From Minisyncoccia bacterium (GTDB lineage: Bacteria > Patescibacteriota > Minisyncoccia > Phycocordibacterales > PALSA-1337), in the NCBI GenBank assembly GCA_044228445.1, contig JBGAUV010000002.1, positions 140,600 to 204,599 of the forward strand: a DNA stretch of 64,000 bases, given 5' to 3'. A program made the position numbers and the translations under genes. Below, one piece after another: positions 62,004 to 64,000 of this stretch. The notes beneath the pieces are model-generated. The model had not been told where the DNA came from, did not search any database, and was given only the letters and a program-made list of their open reading frames with translations. Within the stretch, counting starts at the first letter, position 1. Every line of letters starts with the position of its first letter.

Positions 62004-64000
62004 TTAAACAACAATATTAATTAATCTATCTTTAACGATAATTACCTTTTTAATTTTATTTTGTTCAATGATTTTCTTTATTTCAGGCATATTTAAAGCC
62101 GTATTTTGAATATAATTATCATCCATACCCTTTGAAGTTTCAAAACTAGCTTTTATTTTTCCATTAACTTGAACAACAATTGTAATTTTATTTGAACTAG
62201 TTTTTGAAATATCTGCATTTGGCCAAATCTGTGTATGAATTGAAGCTTTATTACCTATTATTGACCATAGTTCTTCTGTAACATGTGGAATAAATGGAGA
62301 TAAAATCAAAATTAAATTTTCAAAAGTCTTTTTTGAAATTGCTTTTTCTTTTTCCAAATCATTTACAGCGATCATAAGTGAACTTACTGCCGTATTAAAT
62401 GACATATTTTCAATATCGTCACTTACTTTTTTAATAACTTTATTTATCGTTATTTCCGTACTTTCTGTATCTTTATACCCTTTTGTATAATTTATTTTAT
62501 CTTGCAATTTCCACACTCTCTCTATAAATCTTCTAGGACCAGCTATATTATCTGTTTCCCATGATATAGCTTGATCAAAAGGACCCATAAACATTTCATA
62601 TAGACGTAGAGTATCGGCACCAACATTGTTTACAATATCGTCTGGGTTCACAACATTGCCTCTTGATTTTGACATTTTTTCTCCTCCTCCTGCTAATATA
62701 AGTCCATGTGATGTTCTCTTTTGATAAGGTTCTTTTGTAGATACAACTCCTATATCAAATAAAAACTTATGCCAAAAACGAGAATACAATAAGTGAAGAG
62801 TTGTATGTTCCATACCACCATTGTACCAATCAACTGGAGTCCAATATTTTAGCTTTTCTTTATCAGAAAGTGCCTTTTTATTTTTTGGATCAGTATATCT
62901 CAAATAATACCAACTAGAACCCGCCCAGTTAGGCATTGTATCTGTTTCTCTTTTTGCTTTACTTTTACACTTTGGACATTTAACATTTACCCATTTTGTA
63001 ATAGCTGCAAGTGGTGATTCACCATTTTCTGTAGGTAAATAATTTTTAACTTTTGGAAGTTTTATTGGTAAATCCTTTTCTGGAACTGGTACTATTCCAC
63101 ATTTATTACAATGAATTACAGGAATAGGTTCACCCCAATATCTTTGTCTTGAGAATACCCAGTCTCTAAGTTTGAATTTATTTACCCAATTTCCTTTTAC
63201 ATATTTTGTAATATCTTTCTTAATATCCTCTGACTTTTTACCGTTAAAATCTTTTGAATTTATAAGGATACCGTTTCCTGTATATGCTTGAGATTTATTT
63301 GTAAATCTATGTAACCATATACTCATTTCAGCATGAGTCATTTTTTCTTCATTTACATCTTTTTCATTCATCCAAATAGTTTCGTGTGCATCACTTTCTT
63401 CAACTGAAACATCGTCTTTATCCTCATTTTCTAGAGTAAATAGAACAGCGGTTGTTAAAGATATTCTATTTTCACCTTTATGTGCAGCATAATATTCTGC
63501 CATAACTTGTCCTCCTAATATTCTGGGATCTTTTAAATTTTTATATCCTGTTTCCTCATAAACTTCTCTTTTTGCTGCAGTAATAACATCTTCTTTATCT
63601 TCAACACCTCCCATTGGAAAAGTTGTCCATGGATGTTTCTTCCATTTCAAACCAAGTATTCTGCCATTTTTAGGATTATAAACTATTGCATGAACATTTC
63701 TTCTTGTTACTGTTTTCTTTCCCTGAATAGGAGGATTTCTTTTATCTACTACATGTGGAATAACTACTTCTTTTATAGGTAGACCGTATTTATTTGCAAA
63801 TACATAATCTCTATCATCATGCGCTGGCACCGCCATAACAGCTCCAGTACCATAATCTCCAAGTACATAATCACTGATCCAAACTGGTATAGTTTCTCCA
63901 TTAGCTGGGTTTATTGCACTAATTCCTTTTATGCATACCCCTGTCTTTTCTTTATCAGCATTTGTTCTTTCTATTTCGTCTTTTGCTTTTGCTTGTGATA
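62004..64000 (-). CDS. leuS: leucyl-tRNA synthetase, 3' portion (gene continues beyond window) with inserted Nudix domain
   Basis: [47 protein letters not shown] (KMSKS). My in-frame translation upstream of the track ATG (63836) reaches the window edge with no stop: ...[34 protein letters not shown]. Insertion contains [23 protein letters not shown]. Confidence 0.9.
   Translation of the reverse strand, partial: [664 protein letters not shown]

Follow-up and report, generated by a model that had tools for sequence, protein, structure and literature searches.

Why should a housekeeping aminoacyl-tRNA synthetase carry a second hydrolase inside its own editing domain? This question is raised by the far end of a 64-kb stretch of DNA (64,000 nucleotides, hereafter the window) from a Minisyncoccia bacterium, where the leuS gene for leucyl-tRNA synthetase (LeuRS) encodes a Nudix hydrolase domain within the CP1 editing domain. 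An earlier note on this DNA, made from the letters alone, had pointed to a Nudix box inside LeuRS, and by translation we indeed found, one after the other, the segment [21 protein letters not shown], the box [23 protein letters not shown] and the segment [11 protein letters not shown]. As far as structure is concerned, we consider it close to certain that this LeuRS harbours a genuine Nudix domain within its CP1 editing domain and is otherwise complete. Chance is ruled out by the Pfam E-value, by a confidently modelled Nudix fold and by the presence of the domain in all of the 120 closest homologues, as detailed below.

Read on the minus strand, 62004..63998 gives a single unbroken frame of 664 residues followed by a stop codon, and at the window end this frame has not closed. 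By translation, family profile and sequence identity, the whole feature (62004..64000, minus strand) corresponds to the C-terminal 664 codons and the stop of leuS. The fragment is 100% identical to P0001, a public full-length LeuRS of 952 aa that serves as our numbering reference (fragment residue = P0001 residue - 288). The 288 N-terminal residues therefore lie beyond position 64000, in line with the note's statement that the gene runs past the window edge; the complete gene occupies L001 1127-3985. With its 664 residues alone, the fragment passed the NCBIfam equivalog model for bacterial LeuRS (TIGR00396, leuS_bact; 568.5 bits, cutoff 548.4), and Pfam recognized in it the editing domain PF13603 (E 1.3e-34), the class I core PF00133 and the anticodon-binding domain PF08264. 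Also, P0001 matched the LeuRS of Thermus thermophilus (1h3n) with a phmmer E-value of 1.5e-209. We take the window gene to be the housekeeping LeuRS of a low-GC (33%) bacterium of the Patescibacteria, or candidate phyla radiation (CPR).

By aligning P0001 to 1h3n, we could delimit the extra segment. Residues 4-367 of P0001 correspond to T. thermophilus residues 3-362 and residues 525-728 to T. thermophilus 375-583, which leaves an insert of 157 residues in a surface loop of CP1 (aa 368-524; 63291..63761, minus strand) where the T. thermophilus enzyme has ~12. The ~145 extra residues come close to the ~140 that the note had counted, and the limits are nearly identical to the interval 63300-63760 that it had given. 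In E. coli LeuRS, the corresponding whole interval is ~25 residues long. CP1 sequence was found on both flanks of the insert. The part that precedes it (aa 289-367; 63762..63998, minus strand) covers positions 64-146 of the 185 positions of the PF13603 profile and aligns up to T. thermophilus residue 362, and the part that follows it (aa 525-566; 63165..63290, minus strand) aligns from T. thermophilus residue 375 and leads back toward the catalytic core. Between the two, the NUDIX profile PF00293 matched fragment residues 98-224 over positions 2-126 of its 134 positions (E 1.6e-14, 54.5 bits, cutoff 21.1). The match of PF13603 is thereby divided into two pieces, the first of which ends at profile position 146 of 185.

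The Nudix box itself spans G418-Y440 (63543..63611, minus strand) and matches all the fixed positions of the GX5EX7REUXEEXGU consensus. It is unique across all frames of the 64-kb window, and we found no other Nudix gene there. Twenty-one residues past the box, the insert displays the sequence H461-K-G-E-N-R466 (63465..63482, minus strand), a signature of the subfamily ('HK..NR') that is conserved in the homologues, is retained in free-standing as well as in other embedded Nudix copies, and is predicted to bind phosphate or the substrate.

Does the insert fold as a Nudix domain, or could it be an ordinary editing or leucine-specific segment, as the note had allowed for? We modelled the insert with AlphaFold2, supplying 32 homologous inserts as input, and obtained a mean predicted local distance difference test (pLDDT) of 94.8 and a predicted template modelling score (pTM) of 0.87. 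When this model was searched against the PDB with Foldseek, 519 matches were obtained at E <= 1e-3, and all of the 50 matches listed were Nudix proteins. Pfam, AlphaFold2 and Foldseek thus agree on a Nudix fold, an alpha/beta/alpha sandwich, and set aside the ordinary-segment explanation. We then modelled CP1 together with the Nudix domain (aa 222-566; pLDDT 87.5, pTM 0.79). The CP1 part of this two-domain model superposes on crystal structures of isolated CP1 (TMt ~0.8), and a pTM of 0.79 for two domains of similar size implies that, in the model, the Nudix domain sits on CP1 in a defined orientation.

The host enzyme, judged by its motifs, is intact, since those of the synthetic site and of post-transfer editing are both kept. 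The KMSKS catalytic loop of the synthetic site is found at K729-S733 (62664..62678, minus strand), aligned to the T. thermophilus 'MSKSKGN', and the HIGH motif, HVGH in P0001 (aa 53-56), lies beyond the window. The editing-site motif H348-D-D-R-D352 (63807..63821, minus strand) ends on an aspartate, D352, that we take to be the counterpart of E. coli D345. For all conservation counts, we used the 120 closest homologues, which are 54-97% identical to the window LeuRS; H348, D349, R351 and D352 are each present in 120/120 of them. In the TTRPDT motif (aa 250-255 of P0001, beyond the window), T250, T251, R252 and T255 are likewise found in 120/120, D254 in 119/120 and P253 in 88/120. We also noticed that the leucine-specific domain is missing from the window LeuRS before KMSKS (P0001 aa 728/729), T. 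thermophilus residues ~584-636 being without counterpart in the alignment.

Within the Nudix box, G418, G419, E433 and G439 are conserved in 120/120 homologues, R432, E436 and E437 in 119/120, and E424 in 118/120. Outside the box, R387, W412, K462, N465 and R466 of the insert are invariant (120/120), followed by E489 and W497 (119/120) and H461 (115/120). More broadly, the canonical pattern GG..E..RE..EE..G was present in 144 of the 153 copies that occupy the same insertion site as in the window. By using the Nei-Gojobori method on pairwise comparisons, we measured the ratio of nonsynonymous to synonymous substitution rates (dN/dS), which was 0.032 for the insert and 0.066 for the remaining gene against L006, and 0.096 and 0.119, respectively, against L007. 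Purifying selection on the insert is therefore equal to or above that on the remaining enzyme. With a box invariant in at least 118/120 homologues and dN/dS values of 0.03-0.10, the Nudix insert is predicted to be catalytically competent. A recent horizontal acquisition was also considered, and we rejected it because the insert matches the host gene in GC content (0.316 versus 0.295) and in GC content at third codon positions (0.127 versus 0.159). With a mean net charge of -3.4, the insert is mildly acidic, whereas the remaining LeuRS is basic (+17); this speaks against an extended surface for RNA binding on the Nudix domain.

How widespread is this architecture? The note had called for a survey of CPR LeuRSs for the same insertion, and we found it throughout the lineage. 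In a collection of 5.8 billion proteins, the 120 best matches all combined PF00293 with LeuRS domains (120/120). The source names of the best homologues were Patescibacteria, Paceibacterota and Minisyncoccota, with the product labelled only leucyl-tRNA synthetase or class I tRNA ligase. When GTDB species, each represented by a single genome, were scanned for the pattern, a relative was found to be encoded in at least 568 species of Patescibacteria, from at least 599 candidate stretches, the record titles including Paceibacterota, Parcubacteria, Wildermuthbacteria, Taylorbacteria, Moranbacteria, Uhrbacteria and Magasanikbacteria. At the 80 best loci, the open reading frames (ORFs) positive for the Nudix profile were of LeuRS size (700-1300 aa), and three loci had an extra small copy nearby. 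The Nudix-in-LeuRS architecture is thus old and lineage-wide, and it is not a recent acquisition.

We also searched with the insert as phmmer query, exhaustively, through 1.84 billion cluster representatives. Only 382 matches were obtained at E <= 1e-3, 150 of them at E <= 1e-10, so that the insert defines a narrow, distinct Nudix subfamily. LeuRS sequence is present in 109 of the 150 best representatives, and the others comprise 33 small proteins of at most 210 aa and 8 other proteins. Within LeuRS, the Nudix domains occupy the site of the window (site 2, aa 368), the N-terminal hinge of CP1 (site 1, ~214-246) and, rarely, a third region at ~590-640. Some Patescibacteria LeuRSs contain two or three Nudix domains (P0007, P0016, P0018, P0063, P0121, P0124, P0127, P0161 and P0165); in P0124, both copies lie at the hinge and the site of the window is empty.

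These copies fall into two paralogous types, the canonical type A, to which the window copy belongs, and an altered type B. Type B copies show E424Q, R432A/M/T/Q and H461P, and keep the EE pair, K..NR and both tryptophans. They were found in P0007 (245-390), P0184, P0119, P0229 and P0244, and as free-standing proteins in P0185, P0192, P0257 and P0270. Type B is frequent among the extra copies, often beside a canonical one, and it may be inactive or altered in specificity.

Members of the subfamily also occur outside LeuRS. One lies inside a class II prolyl-tRNA synthetase (ProRS; P0225, 643 aa), between the anticodon-binding domain and ProRS-C_1, with a Nudix box that reads LK..EE and not ER..EE; the ProRS-Nudix combination is also seen in the fragment P0203 and possibly in P0231. 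For four free-standing copies, we looked at the neighbouring genes. P0141 is encoded 2 nt upstream of a leuS that itself bears a Nudix domain, and the leuS-sigma70-DUF8128 synteny of the window is found there too. P0157 is flanked by argS on one side and by an ileS with a His_Phos_1 insert on the other; its cluster also contains a dNK/thymidylate kinase, a dUTPase and three more Nudix genes. P0160 is found 5 nt downstream of fpg/mutM, and P0146 adjoins a gene of the PRK/uridine-kinase family. In a related organism, a 10-kb region (L002 1-10498) groups four Nudix genes with a dNK/thymidylate kinase, a Zeta-toxin-like kinase, a dUTPase, argS and an isoleucyl-tRNA synthetase (IleRS), the latter being 1184 aa long with a His_Phos_1 (histidine-phosphatase) insert.

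Nudix is not the only domain hosted by these synthetases. Inserts of the alpha/beta 'Ser_hydrolase' family (PF06821) were seen at three sites in the Nudix-bearing LeuRSs P0010, P0022, P0023, P0030, P0031, P0051, P0115, P0153, P0195, P0201 and P0223, and Ham1/ITPase inserts in P0133 and P0178, while P0130 has a HAD hydrolase insert. P0255 is a free-standing protein made of a Ser_hydrolase and a Nudix domain, and because it joins both, it suggests that these two modules act together. Nuclease-like domains were noticed as well, namely PDDEXK_3 at the N-terminus of the LeuRS-relative fragment P0152 (1-146) and DUF559 at the CP1 hinge of P0163 (248-396); they may be traces of mobile elements at the same insertion hot spot. 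Finally, a conserved insert of ~120 aa with the motif 'KTIETR' occurs around aa ~600 of LeuRS in P0178 (647-769), P0179 (607-727), P0181 (604-735), P0217 (568-698) and P0219 (214-348), and possibly also in P0038 near aa 588. An ASCH/YqfB-like identity of this insert found no support, as neither Pfam nor the profile search of the PDB gave a match.

What, then, could the nested domain do? We regard the chances as evenly balanced that this LeuRS is bifunctional, with a Nudix domain that cleaves a small pyrophosphate-containing nucleotide and takes no part in amino-acid proofreading. The assignment of the substrate to the class of small nucleotides is tentative, at or slightly short of an even chance. 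According to this proposal, the module would be an active pyrophosphohydrolase, its likeliest substrates would be non-canonical or damaged nucleoside triphosphates, or else the dinucleoside polyphosphates (ApnA) that synthetases make as by-products, and its tethering to LeuRS would serve co-expression and co-localization. The subfamily is repeatedly linked to synthetases, with 109 of 150 representatives in LeuRS, one copy 2 nt upstream of leuS, one between argS and ileS and one in ProRS. The mutM, dUTPase and kinase contexts, the co-occurrence with Ham1 and HAD inserts and the acidic character of the insert make nucleotide-pool sanitation, salvage or ApnA removal more plausible than direct binding of RNA. 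Several observations nevertheless speak against such a cleaning role. The gene-context evidence consists of four free-standing examples, and the insert matched no characterized Nudix subfamily in the NCBIfam, PDB profile and structure searches. Moreover, sanitation leaves unexplained why about three quarters of the subfamily reside in LeuRS and why the inserts are mostly grouped around CP1, where the tRNA 3' end is handled; this leaves some room for a role at tRNA ends. The generic by-product argument is also incomplete, because we found no Nudix domain in the other synthetases of the window (a class I enzyme, the alanyl-tRNA synthetase and the cysteinyl-tRNA synthetase).

Could the domain instead act in cis on what its own synthetase makes, that is, on diadenosine tetraphosphate (Ap4A, formed from Leu-AMP and ATP) or, as pre-transfer editing, on activated or misactivated aminoacyl-adenylates? 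The strongly conserved physical fusion to the synthetase is what one would expect in this case, the invariant Nudix box speaks for hydrolysis of Ap4A, and the best neighbours of the insert, weak and far under the family cutoffs as they are, include ApnA hydrolases (3i7u, the Ap6A hydrolase Ndx1, and RppH bound to Ap4A). A conserved tyrosine ~16-18 residues downstream of the Nudix box is a criterion for ApnA hydrolases, and the window protein has Y457 and Y458, 17-18 residues past its box; yet both positions alternate between Tyr and Phe among the 120 homologues (Y75/F43 at 457, F90/Y27 at 458). As for Leu-AMP, full conservation of the site for post-transfer editing means that an additional editing route is not obviously required. 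In addition, an aminoacyl-adenylate is an acyl-phosphate and not a nucleoside diphosphate linked to another moiety, which makes it chemically atypical for a Nudix enzyme, and we know of no Nudix enzyme that hydrolyses one; cleavage of Leu-AMP by the insert is thus disfavoured. Against Ap4A as a cis substrate, LeuRS is a weak producer of it and the other synthetases of the window have no Nudix domain. The free-standing copies in contexts unrelated to synthetases, the ProRS member of the same subfamily and the sister LeuRSs with Ham1 and HAD inserts point rather to general nucleotide sanitation or salvage. On balance we find this cis activity unlikely, at about one chance in five, although its Ap4A part overlaps with the small-nucleotide cleavage that we prefer. 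A somewhat less likely candidate is repair of tRNA ends, in which the Nudix domain on CP1 would remove in cis a pyrophosphate-linked group from tRNALeu, be it a 5'-triphosphate, an Np4- or NAD-type cap or a pyrophosphate added by a toxin to the 3'-CCA, while the phosphatase and esterase inserts of sister enzymes complete the repair. The sites of the Nudix and other hydrolase inserts do cluster in and around CP1 (aa ~214-246, 368 and ~536), the pTM of 0.79 suggests a fixed position there, the nearest sequence neighbours, again weak, include two enzymes of RNA 5' ends, RppH and Dcp2, and the HAD, His_Phos_1 and alpha/beta-hydrolase inserts of related LeuRSs and IleRS could strip a residual phosphate or acyl group. 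However, the mildly acidic Nudix domain is unlike the RNA-binding remainder of LeuRS, extra copies lie far from CP1 (aa ~590-640) and in ProRS, the RppH matches are far under the family cutoffs, and the free-standing copies beside mutM, dUTPase and nucleoside kinases, together with the Ham1 ITPase insert, are nucleotide-pool contexts. Our literature search on Nudix enzymes and pyrophosphorylation of the tRNA CCA end returned nothing relevant.

A broader version of the cis idea has the same low probability as tRNA-end repair. Here, the class I synthetases of Patescibacteria, chiefly LeuRS, would scaffold on and around CP1 a modular kit of hydrolases, in which the Nudix domain acts in cis on the tRNA or on nucleotides bound to the synthetase. 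Such a kit would comprise Nudix types A and B, Ham1, HAD, the histidine phosphatase and the alpha/beta 'Ser_hydrolase'; the Nudix module might strip pyrophosphate-linked blocks or caps from tRNALeu ends or destroy damaged ATP analogues before activation. Less probable again, at roughly one chance in ten, is that the domain is non-catalytic, its box serving to bind a ligand or a metal, and that it works as a nucleotide sensor or as a structural module that modulates the movement of CP1, for instance in place of the leucine-specific domain. The window LeuRS indeed lacks the leucine-specific domain of the Thermus enzyme, the pTM of 0.79 would fit a rigid docking on CP1, and type B copies are retained despite the loss of the first glutamate and the arginine of the box, so that copies without catalysis do seem to be tolerated. 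On the other hand, the window copy is of type A with its catalytic positions kept in at least 118/120 homologues, conserved metal-binding glutamates and a dN/dS of 0.03-0.10 are what is expected of an active enzyme, and free-standing type A copies cannot scaffold LeuRS. By far the least probable explanation is that of a tolerated passenger, a mobile or selfish domain that was accommodated by a permissive loop of CP1 and does not serve its host. In related LeuRSs, CP1 and its hinges accept many unrelated inserts, including the nuclease-like PDDEXK_3 and DUF559 of the mobile-element kind, but a dN/dS at or under the value of the host gene, an invariant catalytic motif, the presence in at least 568 species, a host-like composition and the recurrent tie to synthetase genes even as a free-standing copy all speak against it.

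The surroundings of leuS and the rest of the window held a few further observations. Upstream of leuS and beyond the window (L001 553..1126), a 575-nt gap separates it from ychF and contains two small hydrophobic ORFs of 70 and 79 aa; when we looked there for a regulatory RNA or a remnant gene, we found only sub-threshold Rfam matches and these small ORFs. At 16913..19114 (plus strand), a 733-aa class I synthetase ORF of the Ile/Leu/Met/Val type has a truncated match to the anticodon-binding domain (profile positions 1-106 of 148), and is followed with a 13-nt overlap by a 230-aa ORF (19102..19794, plus strand); the two may be a split or frameshifted synthetase gene. The alanyl-tRNA synthetase (53035..54831, minus strand) counts only 598 aa, with its catalytic core and tRNA_SAD, and apparently misses the usual C-terminal domain. 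Lastly, the sole Pfam match of a 1295-aa ORF at 12143..16030 (minus strand) was a marginal Y_Y_Y repeat.

Has this architecture been described before? A full-text literature search found no paper on a LeuRS, or on any CPR synthetase, that contains a Nudix domain; in the one apparent match (PMC12077802), Nudix occurred only in the reference list. The Nudix-LeuRS sequences are public and automatically annotated, so the architecture is in the databases yet undiscussed. Aminoacyl-tRNA synthetases belong to the most thoroughly studied enzymes, and their CP1 domain is targeted by drugs (benzoxaboroles) and serves as a textbook case of proofreading. A second, unrelated hydrolase inside it, under strong selection in hundreds of species, is an architecture that our literature search did not find described. 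Patescibacteria have minimal genomes and do not synthesize nucleotides de novo. If the Nudix domain is active, it would tie tRNA charging either to the regulation of the nucleotide pool or to a new kind of quality control, of substrates or of tRNA; if the hydrolases around CP1 form a modular kit, a new layer of quality control or repair would be built into the synthetase. Together, the multiple Nudix copies, their degenerate paralogues, the Ham1, HAD and alpha/beta-hydrolase inserts, the ProRS copy and the argS/ileS neighbours suggest that the attachment of clean-up enzymes to synthetases is a principle followed across the lineage.

Finally, how does this protein compare with known enzymes? 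With the canonical bacterial LeuRSs of T. thermophilus (1h3n, 2bte) and E. coli (4aq7, 4arc), it shares the class Ia core with HIGH and KMSKS, CP1 with TTRPDT and HDxRD, and the anticodon-binding and C-terminal domains, consistent with its passing TIGR00396. The canonical enzymes differ in having ~12 residues (Thermus) at the Nudix site of CP1 and in possessing the leucine-specific domain. On the Nudix side, the closest structure is 2azw, a free-standing MutT/Nudix protein of Enterococcus faecalis from structural genomics, with 16% sequence identity; it is uninformative on function because it has itself no known substrate. RppH/NudH, the Aquifex Ap4A hydrolase 3i7u and T. thermophilus Ndx1 share with the insert the W..P.GG lead-in to the Nudix box. 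However, the likeness to the RppH/ApnA-type enzymes is confined to the Nudix-box half, and the signature R387, W412, HK..NR, E489 and W497 is the insert's own and not defined by those families. Phmmer and a profile of 32 sequences, searched against the PDB sequences, matched only this half (best E 5e-6).

Membership in the characterized equivalog families was tried and rejected, the scores being far under the cutoffs. For RppH/NudH (NCBIfam, PRK00714 equivalogs), the insert reached 24-28 bits (best 28.3) where cutoffs are 116-259, and six free-standing relatives likewise gave only sub-threshold NCBIfam matches, RppH included. For the MutT 8-oxo-dGTPase (TIGR00586), the insert had no match at E <= 0.01, and one free-standing relative scored 23 bits against a cutoff of 97.9. 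A precedent for the arrangement as such is NCBIfam NF040702 (isoleucine--tRNA ligase, N-acetyltransferase domain-containing), which came up among the NCBIfam matches of the window LeuRS and in which an unrelated catalytic domain is likewise part of a class Ia synthetase, although there the host is IleRS and the domain a GNAT. By its profile matches, motifs and fold, the window protein is at once a bacterial LeuRS and a member of the Nudix superfamily.

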